64,000 nucleotides of DNA from a virus. Its lineage: Duplodnaviria; Caudoviricetes. The stretch lies in the IMG/VR virus record IMGVR_UViG_3300048549_001527; one strand, written 5' to 3'. The notes below the pieces were generated by a model. It saw only the letters and a program-made list of their open reading frames with translations. It ran no database searches and was not told the origin of the DNA. Both the position numbers and the translations under genes were made by a program. Shown here in pieces: positions 190 through 59,997 of this stretch. Every line of letters begins with the position of its first letter. The first letter of the stretch is position 1.

Positions 190-492
190 TTATGTGTCAG
201 CTACAATAGTATCTTCAATTGCAGTATTACCTGTTACACCAGCGTCTCCAGCGTCTGATTGAGAAACTTTCATTGGTACTAAGCATTCTGCATGGTGGCG
301 CCCGCCATCTGTGTGGTATAACCACCAGCCCGGACCAGTAATACCTTTAGCACGGTTAGCAGCAACGCCAGCCTCAGTAAGATCAACAAAGATTGCGTTG
401 TCGCGATCATTTGATTTGTTTGTATTTGCCGCGTCGTCTTCCAACCATTTTGGAACGTCGGCTAATGTATCGGTTTTTCCCCAAAGTGCCAT
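190..492 (-). CDS. Hypothetical protein, probably late/virion
   Basis: 100-aa ORF with SD (aggag), downstream of the late promoter at 526-533. Confidence 0.6.
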   Translation of the reverse strand: MALWGKTDTLADVPKWLEDDAANTNKSNDRDNAIFVDLTEAGVAANRAKGITGPGWWLYHTDGGRHHAECLVPMKVSQSDAGDAGVTGNTAIEDTIVADT

Positions 493-745: not shown

Positions 746-1123
746 TTATGGATTAGATTGTTGTCTAGATTGTCTTGCTTGTTTGCGAGCCGCTTGATAA
801 TCGGATCTTGCTTTTTTAAGATCATTACGAGTATCGGTTGCGCGTTTCAATTCTTTTTGTTTACGTTTAAATGCGTCAGCTTTTGCCTGTCTTGCATCGT
901 TACGCCCAGCGCGAGAAACCCTAAGGTTTCCTTGTTTATTAACAAGACCACGACGTATACCTTTAGCCGCAAGTTTTGCAGCACCACCGATTACTTTACC
1001 GATGATTTCATTTAACTCTTCTTCAGTTAAATCATCTGGGTCAATATTTTCTTCGTGCATATGTTCCCATACGAGTGCGAGCTGCATCTCGTGCTCAGTC
1101 ATATGTGATTTAAACGTCTTCAT
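746..1123 (-). CDS. Putative internal head protein with capsid-targeting-like N-terminus
   Basis: Starts MKTFKSHMTE; acidic N-half, very basic C-half. Confidence 0.6.
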   Translation of the reverse strand: MKTFKSHMTEHEMQLALVWEHMHEENIDPDDLTEEELNEIIGKVIGGAAKLAAKGIRRGLVNKQGNLRVSRAGRNDARQAKADAFKRKQKELKRATDTRNDLKKARSDYQAARKQARQSRQQSNP

Positions 1124-1385
1124 TTATTATTATCCTTAACTTGTTTCTTCCAGGTATAATCCTGTGATAAACCATTTTAGGTATTTCTATTGTATCACGT
1201 TTATTTATAACAGTAGGCAGTTCATCATCAAATTGTATTTTCCAATCGTCCCCGTCTAAAACTGTAAACACCCTATTATGCTTATCTCTGTGCCAAACAT
1301 AATCATCGTTTGTTGTATTATACGGGTTAAATATTCTTATCCATTGGTTATCAGTCAAGTGTTCATCATAATATGGTTTTACCAA
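1110..1385 (-). CDS. Small cupin-like hypothetical protein
   Basis: WHRD and YHR motifs in a beta-rich sequence. Confidence 0.45.
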   Translation of the reverse strand: MVKPYYDEHLTDNQWIRIFNPYNTTNDDYVWHRDKHNRVFTVLDGDDWKIQFDDELPTVINKRDTIEIPKMVYHRIIPGRNKLRIIINEDV

Positions 1386-1912
1386 AAGAACGAGCCCCCA
1401 TTTTTTAATCCTAATTCATTCGCATATCGAGGTAAACGGCAAGACCAATATCCAGCTTTAGTTTTATCGTTTTTTAAATGACATTGGTGGCGAGCTGCGA
1501 AAGACTTGCGTGCCTCTTTATCATCAAAGTTTACGGCCAAACCGGACGTATCCCCAAAGGTTACTTTTTTGACTTTATCCCCATCTTTCACGTACACATA
1601 GAACTTTTTGGGACCACCTCTTTGTGGCTTATTGAGCTCAACATCTTTTTCTTCCCCTTCCAACATGGGAATGTCAAGTGGAACTCGCCGTCCTTCGTAA
1701 ATATCGTGTTCACCTATATCTGTTTCTAATAGGTCTTTATCGAAATAATTAGATGGGTTTATGATACCTTCTTTGAATAACTTACGCGCTTCAATAAAAA
1801 AATTGTAAAACGATTTGCTGTGCGGTCTATACACGCACTCTGCAAGTGGTATTTCGTTTTCTAAATGGTATACAATTCCTTCGTGTAAGTTATGCTTTAT
1901 AAAGGTTTTCAT
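1379..1912 (-). CDS. Conserved T4-like phage protein with capsid-targeting-like N-terminus
   Basis: Starts MKTFIKHNLHE; C-terminal KKFYVYVK...KKVTFGD...ARKSFAARHQC...YWSC module recalled from marine myoviruses. Confidence 0.6.
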   Translation of the reverse strand: MKTFIKHNLHEGIVYHLENEIPLAECVYRPHSKSFYNFFIEARKLFKEGIINPSNYFDKDLLETDIGEHDIYEGRRVPLDIPMLEGEEKDVELNKPQRGGPKKFYVYVKDGDKVKKVTFGDTSGLAVNFDDKEARKSFAARHQCHLKNDKTKAGYWSCRLPRYANELGLKNGGSFFW

Positions 1913-2166
1913 AATCTATCTTCCTTGCTGTCTAAACATCTTGTTGTAAACAATGCTGCATCTCTTGCAGTCTTAAAGTACATTGAGTGCTCGTGGAGAT
2001 CAGTCCACTTTTTAAATTTCCATCTGTAATCTTCAAGATGGTATTCCACCCACTTAATTGCTGCGAGCTTTTTGCTACTGTGAAACTTAATCTGTACACG
2101 ATCTTCGGATTTCATCCATTCCGCAATAACTGCTAAGTGCTCTTCTGATTTTGATCCCTTATTCAT
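1909..2166 (-). CDS. Hypothetical protein
   Basis: 85-aa ORF tightly packed in the operon. Confidence 0.5.
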   Translation of the reverse strand: MNKGSKSEEHLAVIAEWMKSEDRVQIKFHSSKKLAAIKWVEYHLEDYRWKFKKWTDLHEHSMYFKTARDAALFTTRCLDSKEDRL

Positions 2167-2169
2167 AGG

Positions 2170-2397
2170 TTAACCTCCAAACTCGTGACCTGCGACTCTT
2201 CGCATTTGTTTATTAAATTCTGCCTGTGATGGCTTTTCTTTATATAATTTAATAGAGATATTAGGTCTATCTTTACCTTTAATTCTCCAATTTTTTCCGT
2301 CTTCTTTGTGCTCAGGTTTAGTGGTTTTAACAACACGGCGCTTATATCCTGCTTCCCATGTTTCTGAACCTTCGCAAAACTGTTTAAAACTTTTCAT
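2170..2397 (-). CDS. Small putative internal head protein
   Basis: Likely start is ATG 2397 (SD aagggag), giving MKSFKQFCE. Confidence 0.6.
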   Translation of the reverse strand: MKSFKQFCEGSETWEAGYKRRVVKTTKPEHKEDGKNWRIKGKDRPNISIKLYKEKPSQAEFNKQMRRVAGHEFGG

Positions 2398-2399
2398 TG

Positions 2400-2720
2400 C
2401 TATTCTCCCTTTGGAACGCAATTAGGGACCATCTTATCCCCTTTTTTCTTCATACCAACTTGTTTATAATCAGACCAACAAGCTTCTTGCTGTCCAATTT
2501 CTTTATCATCTTGCGATTTCATATAATCCCGAGCAGTATCAATATAATCTGTAGCCTTAGTGATTTTGCTTTGTACCCACTCTGGCATATTTTCATCGTC
2601 AGACAACATATCATGCAATTGTTGTGCTGCATCAATCATGGTTTTTAGTTGGCCTTTTGCCATACTACCTTCGTTATCATATTCGTCTTTTGATTCTAAA
2701 AAAGATTTAAAGTTTTTCAT
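2400..2720 (-). CDS. Putative internal head protein
   Basis: Starts MKNFKSFLE; contains MPEWVQSKITKA and C-terminal EACWSDYKQVGMKKKGDKMVPNCVP modules. Confidence 0.6.
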   Translation of the reverse strand: MKNFKSFLESKDEYDNEGSMAKGQLKTMIDAAQQLHDMLSDDENMPEWVQSKITKATDYIDTARDYMKSQDDKEIGQQEACWSDYKQVGMKKKGDKMVPNCVPKGE

Positions 2721-3010
2721 TTCATCAACTTCTTTATTGCTGCCAACGCTTTTTTACCGTCGGGATGTTTTGGATTAATACCTACAGGTTCGCCATTCAC
2801 AAGTTCTGATACATTAACAGATTTCCGCAAAGCTGCAATTGCTTTATGTAAAGGATCTTTTGAGTCATACTTAGTTTCAAACCCTGGTTTGCCGCGAACT
2901 TCAACCCAAGATTTTTCATTACTGTCTTTTATTTTTAAAACGTCTTGAGACTTACCCCTAATGAGTTTAATCTTAAGACCTTCTGATACATATTGTTTAA
3001 AACTATACAT
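2717..3010 (-). CDS. Putative internal head protein
   Basis: Likely start is ATG 3010, giving MYSFKQYVSE. Confidence 0.55.
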   Translation of the reverse strand: MYSFKQYVSEGLKIKLIRGKSQDVLKIKDSNEKSWVEVRGKPGFETKYDSKDPLHKAIAALRKSVNVSELVNGEPVGINPKHPDGKKALAAIKKLMK

Positions 3011-3563
3011 ACTCTTTAATCTTTTTCTCAATCGCTGTAATGATTTTATTATGTGTTTTACTTAAATATCTATCACTGCGTAGGCGTTTGATAGCGAGCG
3101 AAGTTTGTGCAGCATATTTCTTTTGAAAATCTACAGGCCGCGTATCAATGTCTTGTACGTTTGCTAATCTATCAGCAAGTTTAATAACCAATGACCAACT
3201 TGACATTTTAGCCATCTTATTGGCAATGTATTCACCTTTACCAATCGCATCAGACGCAGCCTTATCAGTTGTTAATTCCTGAACCATATCAGCTACAAGA
3301 GCACCAAACTGTTTAACTAAATCAGCATATGTGGTATCAGTATCTTCAATAGTATCATGCAAATATGCTGCTTGTACTAATGCTGAGAGGTTGTTTGATT
3401 TTTTAAACTTTTGTACGAACCTAGCAACTTCTTTTGGATGCTCAATGTATTTACCACCGCTTTTACGCGTCTGCCCTGAATGAGCTTGAGTAGCAACACG
3501 TAAAGCTTTAAGCGCGCTTTCATTTAGTGTATCTTCAGATATGAATTTTTTAAAAGTTTTCAT
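3003..3563 (-). CDS. HD-domain small alarmone hydrolase-like protein (SpoT-hydrolase/Mesh1 family) with capsid-targeting-like N-terminus
   Basis: AH.GQ.RKSG..YIEHP, AAYLHDTIEDT, V.ELT.DK and IKLADRLANV motifs; starts MKTFKKFISE. Confidence 0.85.
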   Translation of the reverse strand: MKTFKKFISEDTLNESALKALRVATQAHSGQTRKSGGKYIEHPKEVARFVQKFKKSNNLSALVQAAYLHDTIEDTDTTYADLVKQFGALVADMVQELTTDKAASDAIGKGEYIANKMAKMSSWSLVIKLADRLANVQDIDTRPVDFQKKYAAQTSLAIKRLRSDRYLSKTHNKIITAIEKKIKEYV

Positions 3564-6496
3564 TTTTTAGCTTTTTTCTTTGCCATAATTTTCTTAGCCA
3601 TTTTATATACACCTTTAGCTGTAGCTTTGGCACCTTGAGCAACCATTGGAGCGGCAAGAGCAGCTCCTACAACTTCTGGCGGAATACTTTCCATTGGTGT
3701 ATCTTTTTTATATTTTTTAGTAAGCTCATTAGTTCCTTGCTCACCAGCACCACAGGATGCCTCTTTACGCATATCCTTATATGTAGGTTTTGCTTTTGGT
3801 TTATCAGCGTATTCATCCATTTCACCTGCAGCTTTTTTCTTTGCCGCCGCCGCAGCTGAAAATTTAGCTAAGTCTTCTTTTTCATCTTCGTCAATAGTTG
3901 GTGTAGTATTAATATGTTTCTTTGAGCTTTTTTCTTCACCATAGCCTGCTTTAAGACCGCCCATCATACCGCCATATGTTTTCTTTGTTGCAGATTTAGC
4001 ACTCATTGAAGGACGCTGTTTACCGCTTGCTTTATTTTCGCGTTCTTTGTCCTTTTTGATTTCTTCGGGGGTTGGCGCTGTATACTTTTCTAAAAACGCC
4101 ATAGCTTGCTCGTCAAGATTTGATTCTACGTAACCTTTATCACCAGGCTTTTTGCCGTGGTTCATAACCTTTTTACCAATAGCAGTAAGGTTACCTTTCT
4201 TATCATACATTTGATTGACAAGTTTCTTTTCTGATGGTGATAAAGTTTCATCAAGTTCTACTTCTTCGCGGATTTTAACTTTAAACATTTTTTCAACTGT
4301 TTGTTTACCCATAGTCTTAGCAAGATTAGTGATTAACCATTCACGTGGCTCTGTGTCAAGATCATCTACAAATTTAACAAAGTTTGTACCTGCGTTGCCA
4401 CTTGACAACATTTTTGCGGCTTTCATAAAGTCTGCTTTATCAATACCACCACTTTTCTTTGCGTATGCTTCAATACTTGCCGCAGCTTTTTTCATGGCAG
4501 GAGTTGCAGCTTCAATTATATTTTTATATGTTTTTGGCATCTGTTCGTTTCCTTCTCCGCGTAACGACGCAAGTGATCTTTGAGTTGAAGTCATGGTTTT
4601 CTTTGGCAGTTTACGGCCTGTTTTTACTGAACGGCCCATTGCCTTTGCGTGCGCTGCATCCTTAGCACGTTGAATAGCAATAGAGTCACCGGTCATTTTT
4701 GGCGCCTTTTCATCAAGTTGAGTTTCCTCTTTACGAACCTTGTCGGCAAGGTCTTTATCTGCCTTACCCCAAGTACCTGACGATTTTGTTATAAATGAAT
4801 TAACTCTTGCGTGTCCCCATTGCTCAGGAGTTGTGCCTGGGCGGTGACCTGTTCGCCATGCCGCCACGCCACGATTATAAACTTTACGTAAAATACCAGC
4901 AGGCATACCTGATTTCGCCGCTTTATCTTTTAAAGATTTGCCAGCTTTATCTTCTTGTAATCCATCGCCTTCGCAAGTACAAGGATCACAATTACATTGT
5001 CCGCAAACCCATTCCTCTACAAATGTTTCTGTTGCTTCATATAGTTCTGCAATATCTTCAATGTCAAACTCGTTTGCTTCTTTAACATCTTTTGGTTTGT
5101 ACATTTTAAATCTTTTATCAAATTTTACTTTTCCGTTTGCAGCATACAGCATATGTGGACGTTTCATAATACGTTTTCCCCATAGTCCTTCATCAAGACC
5201 TTCAACAAGTTCTTCCCAGATCAAGTCTTCCGTGAAACCCATAGCTCTTGCTTTTTTGGTAAACTTTGACTCTTTAGTCTTTGCTTCCTTATCACCAGGT
5301 GCAGGTTTGTACGCAGCAGGATTATCGTCAGACATCTTTGCGCCTTTTTCAAAATGAGCAGCGCGCGCATCTTTCTTATTTTTATCTACACCTTTATAAT
5401 AACCTTTTGGTTGAGAACCCGGACGATCTGACACGTCGCTATCTTGCGGCTTTGTCATTTTTTCCATGAACATTGCAAATTGTTCGTCAAGGCTAACTTC
5501 TTCCTTTTTTGAACGTGCCGACGCAAGTCGTTCTTGTTCTTTCTTTTTAACCATTGGTATCATTTTGCGCGCAAGTCTATCAATACGTGCAGGAGGTATT
5601 TTTTCCATACGTTTATCAATACGTTCTTTTTCAGCATATGACAAGCTTGCATACTTTTTAGGTTTTGCTAACCTATCTTTAATCATATTCCTAGCCGACT
5701 TTTGTGCTCTTTGTTTAATCTTTTTCATATCAGCTTTTTTACGCTTAGCCCGTTCTTGACCGCGCTTGATTTTTGCACGAGCCTTTCTCATAGACCGAGC
5801 TTTTTTAAATCTTTGAACTCTATTTAGAGCTTCATCCATTTCTAAGTCGTTTTCTTCTGACATGTTCATCCCCATGCTAACTAACGTTGCGATTTTGTCG
5901 GCATCCGTTTTTAATTTCTTAGGCAAATTTGATGTAAACTTTTTCATATCTGTCGATGCATAGCCTCGCATTTTAGTGCCAGAAATTCCAGATACATCAT
6001 CTGCGTCTGGGTCTCTGCTACCTGCTGATACTACTTTAATCTCATCAAACTTATATTCTTTGCCATTATATTTATTTAGTGTAGTATTAAATTCTTTAAC
6101 TCTATCAGAGCCAGCAACCAAAACAACCCGTTTAAATGATCTTTCAAGTTGTTTCATTAGTTGGAAAATAGTTTTAGCATTTGATTTTTTAACAACAGAA
6201 CCAAAAGCTTTTTGGGCAAAATTGATTTTGTCTTCGTAACCTAATGGATTTTTCTTTTTGTCAACTGTATGTGTAAGGAATACGTGCGGTATTCCCTTTT
6301 CAGATTTAGCAACAGAAATAACTTTATTAACTAATTTTTCATGGCCTGCGGTCATAGGGTTCATTCTACCCCACGCAACAACTGCTGTCGCACCAGCGGC
6401 CTCGTCTATCGTAGGCTCAAGCTCAATGTATTTGGCAGAGTCAAACTCTTTAAAACCTGCAATTTTTCTGTCTTTCTTTTTTTCTTTATCAGCCAT
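3560..6496 (-). CDS. 978-aa modular protein: N-terminal cytidylyltransferase/NadD-like (HIGH-motif) domain plus several internal-protein-like modules
   Basis: WGRMNPMTAGHEKL (TxGH), VAGSDRV and SAG.RDPD...GISGTKMR motifs; repeated LDE/xxE boundaries downstream. Confidence 0.75.
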   Translation of the reverse strand: MADKEKKKDRKIAGFKEFDSAKYIELEPTIDEAAGATAVVAWGRMNPMTAGHEKLVNKVISVAKSEKGIPHVFLTHTVDKKKNPLGYEDKINFAQKAFGSVVKKSNAKTIFQLMKQLERSFKRVVLVAGSDRVKEFNTTLNKYNGKEYKFDEIKVVSAGSRDPDADDVSGISGTKMRGYASTDMKKFTSNLPKKLKTDADKIATLVSMGMNMSEENDLEMDEALNRVQRFKKARSMRKARAKIKRGQERAKRKKADMKKIKQRAQKSARNMIKDRLAKPKKYASLSYAEKERIDKRMEKIPPARIDRLARKMIPMVKKKEQERLASARSKKEEVSLDEQFAMFMEKMTKPQDSDVSDRPGSQPKGYYKGVDKNKKDARAAHFEKGAKMSDDNPAAYKPAPGDKEAKTKESKFTKKARAMGFTEDLIWEELVEGLDEGLWGKRIMKRPHMLYAANGKVKFDKRFKMYKPKDVKEANEFDIEDIAELYEATETFVEEWVCGQCNCDPCTCEGDGLQEDKAGKSLKDKAAKSGMPAGILRKVYNRGVAAWRTGHRPGTTPEQWGHARVNSFITKSSGTWGKADKDLADKVRKEETQLDEKAPKMTGDSIAIQRAKDAAHAKAMGRSVKTGRKLPKKTMTSTQRSLASLRGEGNEQMPKTYKNIIEAATPAMKKAAASIEAYAKKSGGIDKADFMKAAKMLSSGNAGTNFVKFVDDLDTEPREWLITNLAKTMGKQTVEKMFKVKIREEVELDETLSPSEKKLVNQMYDKKGNLTAIGKKVMNHGKKPGDKGYVESNLDEQAMAFLEKYTAPTPEEIKKDKERENKASGKQRPSMSAKSATKKTYGGMMGGLKAGYGEEKSSKKHINTTPTIDEDEKEDLAKFSAAAAAKKKAAGEMDEYADKPKAKPTYKDMRKEASCGAGEQGTNELTKKYKKDTPMESIPPEVVGAALAAPMVAQGAKATAKGVYKMAKKIMAKKKAKK

Positions 6497-6528
6497 TTTG
6501 CCCTCAAGATAAAAACTATTCCCAATAT

Positions 6529-7359
6529 TTATAAGATTGAGTAACCCAACCTATTCATAAGATCTTCTCCCATAATTTTAGGAACCATATCTATAAATCT
6601 TTGCTCCAATTGAGTCGGAACACTTTTAACATAATAAGCTATACGATCTTTAGTCATAGGCTGTGACGAGCCAGAATGCATTGCCCAAGTATATTCAGGG
6701 AATTGATATTCAGGCCAACTGAACTTTTGCCACATTTCATTAAAAATGTCTTCACGTAAATCTTTATATAATAGATGTTCCCATTTGATAAGCATAGTTG
6801 TTTCTTTATTTTCGTCATAATATTTTAGCCAAGTATTGAACCAATGTTTATAGCATCTTAACATTTGGTCAGGGAAGCAAGTACCGTTTTCTTCAATATC
6901 AACTCTAGTCTTGTTTCTTTCCCATTGGTTTTGTATTTTATATGTTTCGCCATATGTTTGCTGCCAACCACCGTTTGAGGCTCCTCTTCTGTACATCATA
7001 GACTCAAGCCAAGTATACGGATTTTTGTGGTTTAAAACTACAGGCAAACCTGGGCGTAAAAGCTTTGGCACATTAAGTTCGTGTTTCCATGTTAGTAAGT
7101 CTGCGTTAGGTGGTTTAACCGTATGCGGGGTAAGATCGTTTGCTTTATTAAATTTAAAGTTATCGCGGATCATCCTGTCAATAATAGTTGTCCCTGTTCT
7201 TTGTAACCCAAATTGATAATATGCATAATACTTATGATCTTTCATAATATATTTTGCGCCGTCTTTTTCGATTTCAATTTCATGATCTAACATTTTTTGG
7301 TACCTCTTGAACTTGGCCTGTAAAATGCTCCTTAAACGAAGGTAGCAATTCTTTAACAT
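6529..7359 (-). CDS. Sulfotransferase-like protein
   Basis: FGLQRTGTT (5'-PSB-like) and KNPYTWLES (3'-PB-like). The true start is probably downstream of the annotated one. Confidence 0.6.
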   Translation of the reverse strand: MLKNCYLRLRSILQAKFKRYQKMLDHEIEIEKDGAKYIMKDHKYYAYYQFGLQRTGTTIIDRMIRDNFKFNKANDLTPHTVKPPNADLLTWKHELNVPKLLRPGLPVVLNHKNPYTWLESMMYRRGASNGGWQQTYGETYKIQNQWERNKTRVDIEENGTCFPDQMLRCYKHWFNTWLKYYDENKETTMLIKWEHLLYKDLREDIFNEMWQKFSWPEYQFPEYTWAMHSGSSQPMTKDRIAYYVKSVPTQLEQRFIDMVPKIMGEDLMNRLGYSIL

Positions 7360-8002
7360 TATTATGAGTTGCTGACCTACCCCATATTGTAGATTTCTTT
7401 AATGCGCCCATGCCAGCAATAGGATCAGTAATGGCCATTTTTGTTTTTGTATGTATTACGCGAGTATGCATAAAGTGCCTGTTATCAATAGCTTCAGTTA
7501 TACCGCTTTTTTCTATTTCGTCAACTAAAGTTTGAGCCATAACATGAGTAATTGCATATGCGTGAGACCCAGGATGAAACTGAACATCAACTAATTTTTT
7601 TGGCGGACCTGCAGATTGATAATCATACTTATCCCAATCGTAGTATTTATATCCTAATGCTACAATTCTATCATCAGGAATATCTAAATCAAGTGGATGA
7701 AGCATAATACCGTCGTGTTCTAATATAATAACGCATTCTTTATTTTTAGAAATACGTCGCCACAAATGAGCATGGCTTGCAGTACATCCTGCAGCTCCTT
7801 TATCCATAGGTTTAAACTTTGGAACCGTAACATCAGCTGTATCTTTAAAATTTTTCCAAAGATCTTTTTGATTGGTGGGTTTATAACCTTTATAATATTC
7901 CCACGGCAATCCAACCTTATCACAAGACTCGGCTGATGTTTTTGCGTATTCAATAGACACAGGATCGTCGTGATACATTATATAAGCTTTACTTACTTTC
8001 AT
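7280..8002 (-). CDS. Glycosyltransferase family 25-like protein
   Basis: GCTASHAHLW, IILEHDG and GSHAYAIT motifs. Confidence 0.65.
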   Translation of the reverse strand: MKVSKAYIMYHDDPVSIEYAKTSAESCDKVGLPWEYYKGYKPTNQKDLWKNFKDTADVTVPKFKPMDKGAAGCTASHAHLWRRISKNKECVIILEHDGIMLHPLDLDIPDDRIVALGYKYYDWDKYDYQSAGPPKKLVDVQFHPGSHAYAITHVMAQTLVDEIEKSGITEAIDNRHFMHTRVIHTKTKMAITDPIAGMGALKKSTIWGRSATHNNVKELLPSFKEHFTGQVQEVPKNVRS

Positions 8003-8718
8003 TATATAATATCCTTAATAAAAAGTGAATTGATTTGAAGGTTAACTGGCAAGTGTTTATTGTGATGCGCTAACTTGTAAACCGGTGCTGTAAAGTTTTG
8101 TACCGTTTTAGCAACGATAGAAAGATGCCTAGAGTCGTAAGGAGCAAATACATGCGGGTTACTTCCATCATATGATGCCGGGCTCCATGTTGCATTATAC
8201 TTTTTTACTTTATCCCACTTATCTTTAAACTCAGGTAACTGATTATAGCAAGAATCAAAACAAAAATGAAACCACAAATAATCGTGAAACTTTTGTCTCA
8301 TATCCCAATAATTATCTACTGTTTCTTTCCATTTGTCAACTAAAAAATTACCTTTTTCACCATATAAAAACCAACTACAAACATTATTGCGGTTTGTAGG
8401 TTTTGAAAAGGCAAAGAAGCCTTTTGACGCGTACTCAGGTAACCATTCATCAAGCGGCTTATTAAACAACACCGTTGCATCAACCCATACGCCACCATAC
8501 TTGTTAAGAAGAGAAATACGGATGATATCTGAATACGCAGCCAAAGGACCAGGATGATAAACGTCACTAATGTATTCTTTTAAGTTAACATCCGTAAGTT
8601 CAACAACATTCCAATCTAAGTTGTAATGCTTAATGCTTTTTAAACATTCTTTAACTAAAGGTGGTGCATTATCAAATCCTTGAGACCAATATACCCATAT
8701 GTTTTTATTCATAACCAA
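8002..8718 (-). CDS. Capsular polysaccharide synthesis protein (DXD glycosyltransferase, GT32-like)
   Basis: IWVYWSQG...AP..V..C, SDIIRISLLNKYGGVWVDAT motifs. Confidence 0.75.
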   Translation of the reverse strand: MVMNKNIWVYWSQGFDNAPPLVKECLKSIKHYNLDWNVVELTDVNLKEYISDVYHPGPLAAYSDIIRISLLNKYGGVWVDATVLFNKPLDEWLPEYASKGFFAFSKPTNRNNVCSWFLYGEKGNFLVDKWKETVDNYWDMRQKFHDYLWFHFCFDSCYNQLPEFKDKWDKVKKYNATWSPASYDGSNPHVFAPYDSRHLSIVAKTVQNFTAPVYKLAHHNKHLPVNLQINSLFIKDII

Positions 8719-9367
8719 ACAACTCCAAATCTTTGTGTATATATGGATACAAATCTTTTTTGATTTTAGGAGTTAGGTAATCGTCATAATCTTTTCTTTC
8801 AGATTTATTATGGTGACCAAACTCAACTTTCATATTGAGCTTTTCTGATATAGTCTTTTCGGCTTTATCTTTTTCTTCTAACTTAAATACGTCGTCAACA
8901 AGTAAGTTAAGATGCTGGTCGTAAACAAACTTATACTGAGGAGCATTATGAGGTCTGTTTAACTTCATTTGATAGGTACTTTCCATCGACTGCATTCTTA
9001 TTTGAGCTTCTAAGTTATGAGTACGTTGCCCTAAATGTTGTTGTTTCCATATAGTTTCAGATACAAATCTGTGCCATGGATTACGAACAAATGCAAATGT
9101 ATAGTTTGAATTACAAAAAGAAGGATCGTTCCATTCTTTTAATTGCCATGCTGATAAATGTTGCGTTTCTCCAGTCGGTAATCGCTCAGGAGTTTTTTGA
9201 CCAAAATGGTATTTGGCACCAACTTCTCGACCGAGCTGTTCAAACATTTTGCCATTATCTTGCATATTTGGAAAACCACAAACGTTTCGGAAGAAAAACA
9301 TTTCAACCGAGGTTCCACCACACTTTGGGATATGAATAAAATATGTATTGATTTCTGGTATGTACAT
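8705..9367 (-). CDS. Sulfotransferase family 2 protein
   Basis: FIHIPKCGGTSV and FAFVRNPWHRFVS motifs. Confidence 0.8.
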   Translation of the reverse strand: MYIPEINTYFIHIPKCGGTSVEMFFFRNVCGFPNMQDNGKMFEQLGREVGAKYHFGQKTPERLPTGETQHLSAWQLKEWNDPSFCNSNYTFAFVRNPWHRFVSETIWKQQHLGQRTHNLEAQIRMQSMESTYQMKLNRPHNAPQYKFVYDQHLNLLVDDVFKLEEKDKAEKTISEKLNMKVEFGHHNKSERKDYDDYLTPKIKKDLYPYIHKDLELFGYE

Positions 9368-10020
9368 TATATAAAAGCCTGAGGAACTATGTCTTTATTC
9401 CACCAATATTTGTAGTCTTGCCTGTAATAGAATTTGATTGTATTTATATCATTTTCAGTAAGCTTTATTTTATCTTTATGTTCAGATCCACCGGTTTGAC
9501 GTTTAATTGGCTGTACGTCTCTTCCGCTTATTTTTGAAAGAAACTTTGCAACCTTATCCATTTCGTTGATTGTGAATACTTTATCAAATTTTTCGGGTTC
9601 GTATCCTATTTCTCTGACCATAGGTAAAGTATGGTGAGTAAGATCACCGTTATTGTATTTACCGAGGCGTAACACAAACTCTTCCCAACCGCCAGGAACC
9701 GATCCTTTGCCGTGGTATAAAACTCTATTTGTGTATGCTGATTTTAATCGTTCTATAGGATCACGTATCATACAAATCCTATAGTGTATTTTATCGTAAA
9801 AATTTTCATCGTGGAGCTTGTGAAACTTAGTACTTTGCCCGCGGTACGAGTCTTTATAATCTCGTTCTTTTTCAGGCTTGCCCCAATCTCTTGAAATTTC
9901 ATTGTGCCAATCTAAACCTTCAGCATCAAGCATCATTGTTTTAACCGAGGTTCCACCACACTTTGGTGTATGTACAAAACTAACAACTATATCATTTATA
10001 TTTGCACAAAATCTTGGCAT
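9367..10020 (-). CDS. Sulfotransferase family 2 protein
   Basis: FVHTPKCGGTSV and IRDPIERLKSAY motifs. Confidence 0.8.
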   Translation of the reverse strand: MPRFCANINDIVVSFVHTPKCGGTSVKTMMLDAEGLDWHNEISRDWGKPEKERDYKDSYRGQSTKFHKLHDENFYDKIHYRICMIRDPIERLKSAYTNRVLYHGKGSVPGGWEEFVLRLGKYNNGDLTHHTLPMVREIGYEPEKFDKVFTINEMDKVAKFLSKISGRDVQPIKRQTGGSEHKDKIKLTENDINTIKFYYRQDYKYWWNKDIVPQAFI

Positions 10021-11101: not shown

Positions 11102-11482
11102 TTAAGAATATCCGCCGGTTTTATTTAGTTTGAGGATGCAATGGAATTCACCATCACCAATGAGGCGAATATCAGCTTCAGAATATGCGTTGTCTACGAA
11201 ACCAACAAAGGTATGTTCAGATGCCCCAACCAAATAGTAATGACCGTGTGACGCAACGCCGTCCCATCTGTTTACATCAATATGCTTATTTGGTTTTACA
11301 CCCCAGAATATTTCTTTGAGAGTAACATTAGCATCGCCTGCAGTATAAGTTTCGCCTGGTGCTATAAGTGTAGATAAAGCAATATCAACTATTTCGCCAG
11401 AAGCTTCTGAAGAGTAAACTTTGACTACTGCTTCGTTTTTATCTCGTTTTAAGTAATGTATTTCAGCCATTATTTCTGCCAT
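11102..11482 (-). CDS. Hypothetical protein
   Basis: 126-aa ORF overlapping the upstream stop. Confidence 0.5.
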   Translation of the reverse strand: MAEIMAEIHYLKRDKNEAVVKVYSSEASGEIVDIALSTLIAPGETYTAGDANVTLKEIFWGVKPNKHIDVNRWDGVASHGHYYLVGASEHTFVGFVDNAYSEADIRLIGDGEFHCILKLNKTGGYS

Positions 11483-12711
11483 CCCTTAATATATTTGTCT
11501 GAAAAGTTTGCTGCTGAAAATTGTAAGCGGTCAACAAGTTTTAACGCATTCTTACCATAACGGTCGATTGCCACAAAACCTTCTTGGCCTGTAACTTCAA
11601 ATCCTTTATTCGTTTTAAGCAATGTTTTCAATCCGTCAACTTTTTCAAGTTTGCGTACGATCATATGTTTTGCATCTACGATTAGGTTATACATTGTGAA
11701 TAAATTTTCAATATCTTTTGGTTTGTTTGTTTTAAAGAACTTCATTGCGTCGGCTTTCTTAGCTTCCCAAGTTGCCTTACCTTTTGGTGATTTCTTTGCG
11801 GCAATTTCTCCATCGTACCAATCGTTAAGATATTTTGTTAATCCTTTAACAAACACTTTTGGATTACCTACACGCTGGCCTTCACGTACTTTAACGTTAA
11901 TATAGGTATTTACTCTCATATTGAGTTCTTTATTGGTTGAAGGCAGTAAACCATCAAATGTCTTTTTAGGAATTACACGAAATAATGTTCCGATTTGAGA
12001 AAGGATCCTTGTAATTTCTGCAGTTTCGTCTGCGGTAAAATTAGCTGTACCTGATTGATCTTTAAATACTGCATCAACTGACCATACTGATTTTACTTTT
12101 TTGAGGCTTGAAGCAATCTCCTCTCCAAAACTTGCAGACATTGATTCAAACGCATCTCCTCGGTAGACTGTATGCCAGACCACACCGACCTTGGATCCGA
12201 GTATTGCTTTACCAAGTTCTGATGATTTAGGTACCGCATAAACAATCGTATTAGGATGGAAAGTAAGATGCGATTCACCATCAATCGTTTCTTCTTTAAT
12301 ATCACTTCTTTCATATAAAAAATCGCCTTGTACTACACCCTTAATCCCAAGTTTTGAAAACTCGTCAAGGGCAACTTTCAATTTGGAATTAAGATCGCCT
12401 TTACCAACAGTATCAGCATCAATATCAGCATGCGTTTTGTAAACTTTAGGGTTTTTATTAAACACGCCTTTTTTAGCTACAAAGAACTTTCCGTCACTTG
12501 GATCTGTTCCTGCAAATACGGCTGGAGCGCCATCCCATTTAACACTTATGTTAACAGCAGACTTAGTGTTGCCGCTAAGCATATCACGAATATCACGGAG
12601 ATAGTTGATAACATTTCTTGTTCCTTTTATACCGCCATCTATAACAGCATCTTCAGCATGCGTCATATGAAGATTTTTATCTTCTGTTATAAACGATTTA
12701 AAACTTTTCAT
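11470..12711 (-). CDS. Conserved T4-like phage protein with ATP-dependent ligase-like nucleotidyltransferase motifs and capsid-targeting-like N-terminus
   Basis: SVKWDG (motif I), VQGDFLY (III), QEGFV (IV), LKLV (V); starts MKSFKSFITE. Confidence 0.6.
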   Translation of the reverse strand: MKSFKSFITEDKNLHMTHAEDAVIDGGIKGTRNVINYLRDIRDMLSGNTKSAVNISVKWDGAPAVFAGTDPSDGKFFVAKKGVFNKNPKVYKTHADIDADTVGKGDLNSKLKVALDEFSKLGIKGVVQGDFLYERSDIKEETIDGESHLTFHPNTIVYAVPKSSELGKAILGSKVGVVWHTVYRGDAFESMSASFGEEIASSLKKVKSVWSVDAVFKDQSGTANFTADETAEITRILSQIGTLFRVIPKKTFDGLLPSTNKELNMRVNTYINVKVREGQRVGNPKVFVKGLTKYLNDWYDGEIAAKKSPKGKATWEAKKADAMKFFKTNKPKDIENLFTMYNLIVDAKHMIVRKLEKVDGLKTLLKTNKGFEVTGQEGFVAIDRYGKNALKLVDRLQFSAANFSDKYIKGWQK

Positions 12712-13481
12712 ATTTCTACCTTAAATAGCTGTGCAATAGATTTTTCCATTACATCTAAATTTATCATTACATTCTTTGCACTTGTTACTGGCGCAATGTT
12801 ATAATCTGACCGATTCTGTCTAATTATACCAAATGTTAACTCAAATGTAAACTGATAATTTCCGCCACCTTTGTTTTGTACTCTTGCCCTATAACCTGCT
12901 GTTGCTAATTTACCAAAGGTTCTTAGTCCTTTTAGATTTAACGGATTTTTCTGTCCTAGCAAATACAAGCCGTGTGTACCAACATTAATATAATAAGTGT
13001 CCTTTGTGTTATAATAGCCTTCTATTTCAGTAGATGGTATTTCACCTTTTACATCAGGAAACCTTTTCAGTTCTTTTGCGTATTGTTCTCTTTTTGTTAA
13101 TATTTTCTTTTCGTTTATCAATAATGCAGAAGTAGCAAACTTATATGACTCAATACCGTCCCACGCTTTGTTAATTTTGTCTAATGCCTTTGCGCGTATT
13201 GCAACTGCTTTTATAAATCTTTTTTCAACATCTTTTACTGGTATTTCATCAAATTGCCATTTACCATTTATATATTTTAAAACTAAAGATCCACCTGATG
13301 CCGCTGGCGATATCTTTAATTCACAGCCGCTTTGTCCTAATGCCCTAGGTCCTGGCTTTTTAATTATTAAATCCGGTTGATCTGCTCCTGCTCCTGCTGG
13401 AGTAAAAGTAGCCGGTACTAAATCATATTTCTTTAACGCATCCGATGCGTATCGCTCATATACAAAACCTAACTGTGCCAT
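12708..13481 (-). CDS. PD-(D/E)XK nuclease-like protein
   Basis: YERY...QPDLII...GCELK arrangement. Confidence 0.55.
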   Translation of the reverse strand: MAQLGFVYERYASDALKKYDLVPATFTPAGAGADQPDLIIKKPGPRALGQSGCELKISPAASGGSLVLKYINGKWQFDEIPVKDVEKRFIKAVAIRAKALDKINKAWDGIESYKFATSALLINEKKILTKREQYAKELKRFPDVKGEIPSTEIEGYYNTKDTYYINVGTHGLYLLGQKNPLNLKGLRTFGKLATAGYRARVQNKGGGNYQFTFELTFGIIRQNRSDYNIAPVTSAKNVMINLDVMEKSIAQLFKVEI

Positions 13482-14536
13482 TAGAAATTAATTTTATTAT
13501 TAACCTTAACATCTGGGTCAGTTTCAAAGAATGACATTACGTTTGATACCTTGCCTGAAATAAACGATCTAGCCTTTTTGATACCTTGACCGATCTTACC
13601 TTTTAACCTGCTGATAACGTTTCTAAACATTCCTTCTTCAAGCTCAACTTCTTCTTTGAGTTTTGCATCAACGATAAGTGAAATAACAGACCAGAAGTTA
13701 TACTCGCCAGTTTTTACGCCTTTTAATTTACGGGAGGATGTTTTAAACCGAGCTTGTAGCTTCATTGCATCAGCAATCTTTTTACAATACGCATCGTCAT
13801 ATACTGAGGTGATTTTAGTTGAAGATCCGTTGTGATCTGATACAACCATAAACTCTGCGGCTGAATTACTTGTTTCGCCATACTTAACAAAACCTGACAT
13901 AGCTTCACGCGCAAACTCAATTTTAAATTGTTCACTTTCCTCAAACAACTTGCCGAGTTCAACCATAATTTGTTTATGAGCAGCTTCACCTCGGTTAACT
14001 ACCGGATTATTTCCTGCTTTAATAATAGGTCTTAATTGAGATGGTGCAAGCTGGGCAGTAACAAAGTCATCAAAAATACCTAATACTTTTTTTAGTTGCG
14101 GCGATTTTGAAATATTTACTTTTTCCATCGCAGCATAAAAAGTTGCAGTTGACTCTGCTTTACCGCCTGACATTAATTGTGCCATACCAATTTTCAATGA
14201 TAGTCTTTTATCGCCAATTAGTATATCGGTTTTTGGAGTTGTATCAGTAGCACCGTGGCCGCTCCAAAAAGAAGTAAGACTTGATTTAGCACGACCATAT
14301 TGTTCAGCTTTAACTTTGTCGCCAAGTTTAAAATGAGATTTAATTGATTGTGCAATTTTTTTACCGGCATCAACATACTGAGGTTGCGCCATAATGCTAT
14401 CGTATACCTTTTGCGATATACCCGCAGCTTCAGGATTAATTTCTTGTCCAGTGATTTCGTGCCATCCAATCACAATTGCCGCTTCAAAATCTTCAGCCTT
14501 AATAGCTTCGGTAAGGTGTGTCTTGAACCCCTTCAT
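13481..14536 (-). CDS. PD-(D/E)XK-like nuclease with capsid-targeting-like N-terminus
   Basis: DFEAAI...PKTDILIGDKRLSLK; starts MKGFKTHLTE. Confidence 0.5.
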   Translation of the reverse strand: MKGFKTHLTEAIKAEDFEAAIVIGWHEITGQEINPEAAGISQKVYDSIMAQPQYVDAGKKIAQSIKSHFKLGDKVKAEQYGRAKSSLTSFWSGHGATDTTPKTDILIGDKRLSLKIGMAQLMSGGKAESTATFYAAMEKVNISKSPQLKKVLGIFDDFVTAQLAPSQLRPIIKAGNNPVVNRGEAAHKQIMVELGKLFEESEQFKIEFAREAMSGFVKYGETSNSAAEFMVVSDHNGSSTKITSVYDDAYCKKIADAMKLQARFKTSSRKLKGVKTGEYNFWSVISLIVDAKLKEEVELEEGMFRNVISRLKGKIGQGIKKARSFISGKVSNVMSFFETDPDVKVNNKINF

Positions 14537-14566: not shown

Positions 14567-14574
14567 TATTTATA
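14567..14574 (-). promoter_or_regulatory. T4-type late promoter TATAAATA
   Basis: Exact consensus about 30 nt upstream of ATG 14536. Confidence 0.7.
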
Positions 14575-44481: not shown

Positions 44482-44559
44482 GGTCTCTTAGCTCAGCCGG
44501 ATTAGAGCAAGTGCCTTCTAAGCACTAGGTCGTAGGTTCGAGTCCTACAGAGATCACCA
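44482..44559 (+). tRNA. tRNA-Arg(UCU)
   Basis: Cloverleaf; anticodon arm agtgc-cttctaa-gcact; TTCGAGT T-loop; encoded CCA. Confidence 0.95.
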
Positions 44560-44561
44560 AT

Positions 44562-44646
44562 ACTCGCATGTTGGAATTGGTAGACAATGAAGACTTAAAA
44601 TCTTTTGCCTTAGGGCGTACCGGTTCGAGTCCGGTTGCGAGTACCA
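44562..44646 (+). tRNA. tRNA-Leu(UAA)
   Basis: Acceptor actcgca/tgcgagt; anticodon loop cttaaaa; long variable arm; encoded CCA. Confidence 0.95.
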
Positions 44647-45143: not shown

Positions 45144-45357
45144 GAGAAAGAAAATGGAATTACGAGATCAAATGATAGCAGCTCTAAAAGACCACGCGCG
45201 CGCTCATATCGAAAAACATCGTATGAATGCAGAAATTTATTTGCGGAACCCAGTAGGAGTTGGCGAGCATTCAGAAGTTATGGAAGAAATTGAAAAGCAG
45301 CTTGAAGAAATGGCTAAGTATGAAGACCAATTGGACATGCTAACTAATTATTTCTAA
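45136..45357 (+). CDS. Conserved hypothetical protein
   Basis: H..N.EIYL.NPVGVGEHS motif recalled from marine myoviruses. Confidence 0.6.
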   Translation: MYRRKKMELRDQMIAALKDHARAHIEKHRMNAEIYLRNPVGVGEHSEVMEEIEKQLEEMAKYEDQLDMLTNYF

Positions 45358-46169
45358 TGGAGCCAAAACTAAAAGGATTTCCAAAGTGCTACGTTGTTAA
45401 CCTTGAAGAAAGTGTTGAACGTAGAGACTATATGAATTCCGAGTTTAATAGACTCGGTTTAGATGGAACCGTCCTACAATACAAAAGACTTGAAGACAGC
45501 GATTTAAAGATTGCTGGCGACCGTGACACCTTGGACATACTACCATTAGGTGCTACTACTTCTCATCTCCTGACCATTAAGTGGTGGTATGAAAATACTG
45601 ATGATGAACAAGCCGCATTCTTTGAAGACGACTGTGACTTTAGCACTATTCAACATTGGAACTTTGTTTATGAGGATTATGTTAAGGAGTTTGGCGTATT
45701 GTGGGATGGTCTCCAACTTTGCTGCATGCACGAAGGCTGGGCTGTTATGTATCCACGCCACCGCAACGGCCACGATCATGGACTTCAATGCTATGTAATT
45801 AAGCGCCATTATGCTAAAAAAATTATAGACTATTATTTTGTAAATGATAACACAATACATTTTAAAATGCCGTATGTATTAAAGAGTGAAGATAGTAAAA
45901 AGTATAAACCTACTATAGAAAATGTTGTATATGGATTAGGCACTTTCTATATTCACCCGTTATTTAATCATAACGTACCAAAATTTCCATCAACAGTTCA
46001 CGATCCAAATTCACAACATTTAAAAGATGTTGCTAATCACGCATATGGATATGTTAAACAGTGGTGGGAAACCAAAGGAGGAACTGGTAACCTTAATGAA
46101 TTATTTACTTATGAGTGGTGTTGTCCACCACCTCAAACATTTTCCCAAGTCATGCATATTGATAGGTAG
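45357..46169 (+). CDS. Glycosyltransferase family 25-like protein
   Basis: YVVNLEESVERR, SHLLTIKWW and FFEDD motifs. Confidence 0.7.
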   Translation: MEPKLKGFPKCYVVNLEESVERRDYMNSEFNRLGLDGTVLQYKRLEDSDLKIAGDRDTLDILPLGATTSHLLTIKWWYENTDDEQAAFFEDDCDFSTIQHWNFVYEDYVKEFGVLWDGLQLCCMHEGWAVMYPRHRNGHDHGLQCYVIKRHYAKKIIDYYFVNDNTIHFKMPYVLKSEDSKKYKPTIENVVYGLGTFYIHPLFNHNVPKFPSTVHDPNSQHLKDVANHAYGYVKQWWETKGGTGNLNELFTYEWCCPPPQTFSQVMHIDR

Positions 46170-59920: not shown

Positions 59921-59997
59921 CTCGGTGTAGCTTAGCTTGGTAAAGCGCCTGGTTTGGGACCAGGAGACCGTAGGTTCAAATCCTACTTCCGAGACCA
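59921..59997 (+). tRNA. tRNA-Pro(UGG)
   Basis: Anticodon arm cctgg-tttggga-ccagg; TTCAAAT T-loop; encoded CCA; one U-U mismatch in the acceptor stem. Confidence 0.9.

Follow-up and report, generated by a model that had tools for sequence, protein, structure and literature searches.

Among the cargo proteins of phage T4, IPI* is an injected anti-defence protein and Alt an injected enzyme, and the leaders are processed by gp21. The T4 internal proteins (IPs) IPI, IPII and IPIII, together with Alt, have a leader of ~10 residues in which positions 4 and 7 are aromatic, position 8 is aliphatic and position 10 is Glu; one such leader stands on several unrelated, polymorphic small genes that are expressed late. 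Here we describe a gene for a small alarmone hydrolase (SAH) that begins with a leader of this type. The gene lies in a 64-kb stretch of viral DNA (IMG/VR virus record IMGVR_UViG_3300048549_001527; Duplodnaviria, Caudoviricetes), the whole of which is referred to below as the window. Its sequence and the analogy with T4 suggest that the SAH is probably a head cargo protein injected together with the DNA.

The capsid targeting sequence of T4 has been mapped in detail. For incorporation into the head, residues 1-10 of IPIII are sufficient; targeting is determined mainly by residues 4 and 7, and processing by residues 8 and 10 (PMC9026906, a review of Black's work). T4-like phages can load varied proteins via this capsid tag, and foreign enzymes with only the 10-residue T4 tag were packaged at 20-200 copies and delivered (PMC9026906).

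Phage-encoded SAHs are also known. PaSpo (Salmonella phage SSU5) and PbcSpo (PVP-SE1) neutralise every toxic small alarmone synthetase (toxSAS) tested (Jimmy et al. 2020, PMC7229694). Similar to the SAH of the window, they are single HD_4 domains of lytic phages that lack a synthetase domain, and PaSpo is a detectable homolog of our protein (34% identity, E 3e-8). Neither PMC7229694 nor PMC9712102 mentions a capsid leader or virion association for these two proteins, which we compared by description, not by their N-termini. Phage SAHs are regarded as candidate countermeasures against toxSAS defence and the stringent response, but have so far been treated as made after infection; a copy carried in the virion would be active from the very start. 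Human and Drosophila MESH1, Pseudomonas aeruginosa SAH, Corynebacterium glutamicum RelH and XccSAH have the fold, the metal-binding and catalytic motifs and a length similar to that of the window SAH; unlike it, they are cellular proteins that start near its residue 16, with identity of about 27%. Their substrates span (p)ppGpp, (p)ppApp and NADPH, so activity cannot be transferred from them with certainty.

Phage SAHs and T4 capsid targeting are each known, and we did not find the combination described. Searches for a packaged or injected SAH and for the T4 leader string brought up no earlier description in the literature covered, which is weak evidence of novelty as many subscription papers lie outside such a search; leaders and internal proteins were not covered by Sullivan et al. 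2010.

The gene and its parts are:

3003-3563, minus strand: gene for the 186-aa SAH with an N-terminal leader (open reading frame (ORF) list, Pfam, AlphaFold2 (AF2), Foldseek)
3102-3506, minus strand: HD_4 catalytic domain, residues 20-154 (Pfam envelope and alignment with Rel and MESH1), which holds H42, H69-D70, E73-D74, D131 and N135
3534-3563, minus strand: leader MKTFKKFISE, codons 1-10 (F4, F7, I8, E10), which may be a capsid targeting sequence and contains the cleavage motif I-S-E (comparison with T4 ip genes)

The original prediction, made from the letters and the ORF list, had proposed a capsid-tagged SpoT/Mesh1-type hydrolase in this ORF, an injected copy of which could suppress the stringent response or reverse a toxSAS-type defence at entry. 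The ORF was borne out as a minus-strand frame of 186 aa starting with MKTFKKFISE, the plus-strand reading of the same positions being full of stops, and the predicted motif set proved complete: HPKEV (residues 42-46), LHDTIED (68-74), ELTTDK (96-101) and KLADRLAN (128-135). Database matches were well outside the range of chance: Pfam matched HD_4 (PF13328, E 4e-16; 59.6 bits, cut-off 27.2) as well as HD, and the PHROG match was phrog_990, 'metal-dependent phosphohydrolase' (2.8e-30). The NCBIfam model TIGR00691 (spoT_relA) was matched in its N-terminal hydrolase part alone (6.3e-26), and sequence matches in the PDB were Rel hydrolase domains, MESH1 and bacterial SAH chains (best 1.4e-15). Multiple alignment of 57 homologs showed that H42, H69, D70, E73, D74, D131, R132 and N135 are invariant, and these residues align with the HD and ED motifs of solved Rel and MESH1 chains. 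We take the metal-binding and catalytic roles of H42, H69-D70, E73-D74, D131 and N135 to be those established in the RelA/SpoT homolog (RSH) literature. An AF2 model built with the 57 homologs (mean pLDDT 91.7) had the all-helical SAH/MESH1 fold, and Foldseek matched it with probability 1.00 and TM scores of about 0.7-0.8 to human MESH1, Drosophila Mesh1, P. aeruginosa SAH and C. glutamicum RelH (PDB matches at TM of about 0.8 included 9chy, 5vxa and 3nr1 for MESH1 and 6yvc for P. aeruginosa SAH). Neither Pfam nor NCBIfam found a synthetase, TGS or ACT domain in the 186 residues, HD_4 and HD being the only matches, and PADLOC assigned the protein to no defence-system family. Because the motifs are invariant, the fold is matched and a synthetase domain is absent, the protein is, judged from fold and motifs, a catalytically intact single-domain HD hydrolase of the RelA/SpoT superfamily, which supports the predicted hydrolase.

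Enzymes acting on (p)ppGpp, on (p)ppApp and on NADPH are all among the best matches, which hence do not discriminate between substrates at the level of sequence or structure. The SAH could also be a MESH1-like phosphatase of NADPH or of another 2'/3'-phosphonucleotide, packaged or not, that would reshape the host NAD(P) pool together with an NMNAT-like nucleotidyltransferase. XccSAH and MESH1 hydrolyse NADPH (PMC9765508), and the top structural matches include the MESH1-NADPH and MESH1-PAPS complexes; on the other hand, in sequence the SAH is as near to solved Rel hydrolase domains as to MESH1. We return to this phosphatase below with the candidate transferase.

Residues 1-10 of the SAH closely resemble the leaders of T4. 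In the annotated T4 record, ipII and ipIII begin with MKTYQEFIAE and ipI with MKTFKEFTST; at the targeting positions the SAH has F4 and F7, IPII and IPIII have Y4 and F7, and IPI has F4 and F7. At the processing positions the SAH has I8-S9-E10, that is, an aliphatic residue at position 8 and Glu at position 10. A second [ILVM]-x-E motif, L-N-E at residues 13-15, is conserved across the family. Among the 94 stand-alone family members, over which conservation was counted without filtering for the leader, position 4 was aromatic in 81 and position 7 was aromatic or His in 71, and [ILVM]-x-E occurred in residues 1-24 of all members except one (93/94). In related loci, leader positions 2, 3, 5, 6 and 9 and the synonymous codons vary freely, suggesting that the constraint acts on the peptide and not on the DNA; the codon table was built from sequences pre-filtered for a strict leader and is not independent proof for positions 4, 7, 8 and 10. 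The leader precedes position 1 of the domain HMM (hidden Markov model), the Pfam domain starting at residue 20; it is the sole low-confidence part of the AF2 model (pLDDT 54 for residues 1-10), and it is missing from the SAHs of the non-marine phages DLP_6 and Vibrio pv27, which start at or near the first domain helix. On these three grounds, the leader is an add-on outside the SAH fold. The claim of a capsid tag thus held up in both its match to T4 leaders at genetically mapped positions and its recurrence on unrelated neighbours, which are:

2717-3010, minus strand: leader ORF of 97 aa, MYSFKQYVSE, directly downstream of the SAH gene
2400-2720, minus strand: leader ORF of 106 aa, MKNFKSFLE, with the leader pattern at its first ATG
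2170-2397, minus strand: leader ORF of 75 aa, MKSFKQFCE, with the leader pattern at its first ATG
1379-1912, minus strand: leader ORF of 177 aa, MKTFIKHNLHE, with the leader pattern at its first ATG
746-1123, minus strand: leader ORF of 125 aa, MKTFKSHMTE, with the leader pattern at its first ATG
11470-12711, minus strand: leader-bearing DUF6267 protein, MKSFKSFITE, in a second late block
13481-14536, minus strand: leader ORF of 351 aa, MKGFKTHLTE, with TATAAATA just upstream at 14567-14574

Eight ORFs in the window, including the SAH, start with M[KY][TSNG]F[KI] at their first ATG. Amino-acid composition predicts 0.03 such ORFs, and shuffled DNA contained the pattern 0.4 times on average over six frames; this statistic is generous, as the pattern was defined after the ORFs had been seen. 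The eight proteins share no similarity with each other beyond the leader. Six of them, including the SAH, form an unbroken run (746-3563), and the other two lie within 11470-14536. The SAH genes of related contigs stand in similar tagged runs with different neighbours: across 80 related loci, 198 different ORF products bore the leader, among them the product of the gene next downstream of the SAH in 49 of 76 loci. Such changing tagged neighbours are, by analogy, the pattern of the polymorphic internal-protein loci of T-even phages. Compared with the T4 IPs, the tagged set is larger here (8 genes in 64 kb and about 200 variants in relatives) and includes an RSH-family hydrolase, a type of cargo not known among T4 internal proteins; packaging, which has been established for the T4 proteins, we infer here from the genes.

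Several members of the tagged set have further features. The 106-aa ORF carries a C-terminal Cys motif, CW.DYKQVGMKK...VPNCVP, and matched several PHROGs of unknown function; the same motif forms the junction right before the HD domain in a fusion protein of contig L069 and is a recurrent small module. The DUF6267 protein has a leader here, in the OM43 phage Melnitz and in DLP_6, whereas the copy of cyanophage S-SZBM1 lacks it (starting with MAKNTHLEHLEDD) and is not among the virion proteins listed in the S-SZBM1 paper. PHROG 455 is a fusion of DUF6267 and cytidylyltransferase. Beyond the run lies a 100-aa ORF (190-492, minus strand) that starts with MALWGKTD and has its own TATAAATA at 526-533. 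By eye only, it resembles the MALWG.TD N-terminus of the 'putative S-layer protein' of Melnitz, at the same end of the cargo block, and S-SZBM1_136, a virion protein by mass spectrometry (MS), occupies the corresponding place in its genome.

Head genes were examined in three related genomes (G001-G003), whose conserved genes are about 70-85% identical to the window at the nucleotide level. Peptidase_S77, the family of the gp21-type prohead protease, was detected above threshold in all three. G001 (182.7 kb, 91% complete) encodes a SAH 94% identical to that of the window, and was the one genome in which the scaffold and the gp20-to-gp23 gene order were examined. Its order is terminase, sheath, tube, portal, a 559-aa protein starting with MKTFKNLIAE, an 87-aa ORF, protease, scaffold and major capsid protein. 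The leader-bearing 559-aa protein therefore fills the slot between portal and protease, which in T4 holds the prohead core proteins gp67 and gp68. In another contig (L102, 4257-6301), a SAH homolog, P0115 (51% identical), is located between the T4-type neck genes gp13 and gp14; gp15, the terminase genes and the sheath gene follow downstream of P0115.

The gene upstream of the SAH provided an additional link to virions. It and the promoter motif ahead of it are:

3560-6496, minus strand: 978-aa modular protein (cytidylyltransferase-like N-terminal domain, DUF5824 and other modules), whose stop overlaps the SAH start
6526-6533, minus strand: TATAAATA, a T4-type late-promoter motif about 30 nucleotides upstream of the 978-aa ORF, heading the gene run from 6496 to 746

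The N-terminal domain of the 978-aa protein is 37% identical (E 5e-27) to S-SZBM1_140, which has a leader-like N-terminus, MRFRQFIIE, and was detected by MS in CsCl-purified virions of this cyanophage (PMC9146016). Related cytidylyltransferase-type enzymes were detected in virions of three other cyanophages (PMC10665884; PMC9146016), and the cytidylyltransferase homolog of Melnitz begins with MKKFSEIIE. Virion proteins of this type in T4-like cyanophages, described as cytidylyltransferase or NMNAT-like (S-SZBM1_140 and S-CREM2 ORF154), are homologous to the N-terminal domain of the 978-aa protein but have no HD domain attached, were detected at low abundance and were not linked by their authors to a targeting leader.

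The 978-aa protein and the 559-aa leader protein of G001 have two modules in common (E 3e-18 each). In-frame fusions join the HD domain to proteins of the 978-aa type, with all of it in L069 (1200 aa) and with the C-terminal half in L070. A Cys cluster, a basic C-terminal tail, recurrent acidic junctions that end in Glu (e.g., EEVELDE) and an internal leader-like stretch, MPKTYKNIIE, were observed in the 978-aa sequence, which looks like a protease-processed cargo polyprotein. Part of the cargo would then be a long modular protein with internal leader-like junctions, a further difference from the T4 IPs. The module GAGE(W/Q)GT.ELT.KYKKDTP.E, found in its C-terminal part (3700-3760, minus strand), occurs in relatives between the leader and the HD domain (L019) and at the fusion joint (L070).

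The fusion of the HD domain to a cytidylyltransferase-type protein in L069, and the treatment of the virion transferases as NMNAT-like in the cyanophage papers, would fit the cofactor phosphatase introduced above. However, HD fusions join many unrelated modules, which argues for concatenation of cargo rather than fusion of a pathway, and the transferase domain of the 978-aa protein gave a weak Pfam match (E 0.0014). We consider a role in NAD(P) metabolism decidedly unlikely.

The SAH gene may be expressed late. The run from 6496 to 746 is tightly packed on the minus strand, no convincing same-strand terminator was found inside it, and a second TATAAATA precedes the other tagged block; the motif and the terminator-free run indicate that the SAH may be transcribed late. 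The SAH start overlaps the stop of the 978-aa ORF (ATGA) inside AAAAAATGA (3560-3568, minus strand) and lacks a Shine-Dalgarno sequence, which suggests translational coupling of the two genes. The SAH frame is -1 relative to the 978-aa ORF, so that a slip on the A run would yield a fusion like those of L069 and L070.

Late expression is also expected if the SAH is a cytoplasmic enzyme of the producing cell, the main rival to packaging, which would lower alarmones or neutralise a capsid-triggered toxSAS in the late phase. Its leader would then be non-targeting, that is, a vestigial or regulatory propeptide or the boundary of a recombination cassette without a working packaging signal. The late-promoter motif ahead of the gene run fits such an enzyme, and so does timing: the trigger of the toxSAS of CapRel type is the major capsid protein, which is made late (PMC9712102), and a late cytoplasmic SAH would therefore also be timely, injection not being needed for an anti-CapRel role. 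In addition, all characterised phage SAHs were assayed as cytoplasmic proteins. Conversely, the leader peptide is kept across hundreds of divergent copies while its free positions and synonymous codons drift, its conserved positions are those that function in T4, and a like leader stands on the protein in the prohead-core slot and on a virion-detected cytidylyltransferase. We regard a purely cytoplasmic role as rather unlikely.

Several observations weigh against the SAH being packaged cargo. Some family members have degenerate or shortened leaders (e.g., MQSFSAYTLNE and MMKFQTFNE), which is also what a non-targeting leader predicts, and Glu occurs at exactly position 10 in just 23 of the 94 stand-alone members. 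The motif TATAAATA is present 17 times in the window against a shuffled expectation of 8.9, an excess of about twofold. The window has no head module, so the protease and scaffold were seen in relatives only. The virion MS detections of cytidylyltransferase were of low abundance, and the authors allow for co-purification (PMC10665884). SAHs are promiscuous enzymes, which makes the substrate unreadable from sequence, and the case for this SAH and its close relatives is wholly computational.

A different kind of pairing was considered with regard to the phage's own genes. The SAH could act as a type IV antitoxin of a phage-encoded toxSAS, as ATfaRel does for FaRel. In L103 (a metagenomic contig of 250.6 kb), a homolog 52% identical to the SAH directly precedes a RelA_SpoT synthetase-domain protein (L103:5001-6333); this protein, P0122 (253 aa), scored above the Pfam cut-off for RelA_SpoT and has a leader-like start, MSELKRYILE. 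The two genes of L103 may form a pair of SAH and synthetase carried by a phage. A tblastn search of the window and a RelA_SpoT search of G001-G003 (G001 being 91% complete) found no gene with a synthetase domain, and the downstream neighbour of the window SAH is instead the 97-aa leader ORF, which has no Pfam or PHROG family match. With the partner synthetase absent from the window and G001-G003, we consider it highly improbable that the SAH is an antitoxin in this phage.

Packaging as head cargo remains the simplest account of the leader, the gene context and the relatives taken together, and we consider packaging of the SAH in the head likely. In the mechanism we propose, the SAH would be transcribed late, in a packed run of cargo genes behind TATAAATA, with its translation coupled to that of the 978-aa protein. 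F4 and F7 of the leader would dock the precursor on the prohead scaffolding core, and a gp21-type protease would then cut after Glu10 (I-S-E) or Glu15 (L-N-E), releasing the intact SAH inside the head. In the next infection, the enzyme would exit the head together with the DNA and, in a Mn-dependent reaction, might remove the 3'-pyrophosphate from (p)ppGpp or (p)ppApp, possibly also from pyrophosphorylated tRNA, a molecule that SAHs have been found to restore (bioRxiv 10.1101/2021.04.30.441581). A stringent-type growth arrest or toxSAS toxicity would thereby be lifted before phage gene expression. Packaging, the cleavage site, injection and the substrate are the steps that we infer, and the chain as a whole, from late synthesis through packaging, cleavage and injection to alarmone hydrolysis, could equally prove right or wrong.

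If the SAH is delivered in this way, stringent arrest or a toxSAS defence of the CapRel type would be disarmed seconds after DNA entry, before phage transcription. The effect would be greatest in slow-growing, starved marine hosts, in which the machinery for transcription, translation and replication on which the phage relies is held back by (p)ppGpp. The SAH family is common in marine viromes; relatives are encoded on at least 245 IMG/VR stretches, many of them 80-96% identical, and a protein database held 340 related protein clusters (E <= 0.001); by this spread, delivery of a SAH, if it occurs, would be a common strategy against nutrient-starved ocean bacteria. We tentatively propose, at a shade below an even call, that the heads of marine T4-like phages are loaded in advance with a hydrolase active on alarmones or pyrophospho-tRNA, as one of a large, fast-changing set of tagged and protease-released cargo proteins, some of them modular polyproteins. 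The "internal protein" idea of T4 would in that case extend from a few inhibitors of Escherichia coli phages to a broad enzyme payload of abundant ocean viruses. Testing this would cost little: the leader can be transferred to a reporter, the small enzyme looks soluble, and assays for rescue from toxSAS are available.

The window itself is a low-GC (36.8%) fragment of a T4-like myovirus. Its core genes include gp43 polymerase, a gp46-like nuclease subunit, helicases, both topoisomerase II subunits, gp41 helicase and UvsX. The window has no close relative among cultured phages: when 20 kb of it was compared with them by megablast, only tRNA and topoisomerase fragments were detected, and the DNA polymerase is 44% identical to that of cyanophage S-RIM8. 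Likewise, the SAH shares only 30-45% identity with any SAH of cultured phages. Further features of the window are:

44482-44646, 45400-45486 and 59921-59997: four tRNA genes (Arg-TCT, Leu-TAA, Asn-ATT and Pro-TGG)
6529-10020, minus strand: run of sulfotransferase-like and glycosyltransferase-like ORFs that separates the two tagged blocks

The Asn-ATT tRNA has an unusual anticodon, lies on the minus strand within the span of a plus-strand ORF (45357-46169) and is possibly spurious. Within the sulfotransferase/glycosyltransferase-like run, the sole ORF checked, at 9367-10020, matched Sulfotransfer_2.

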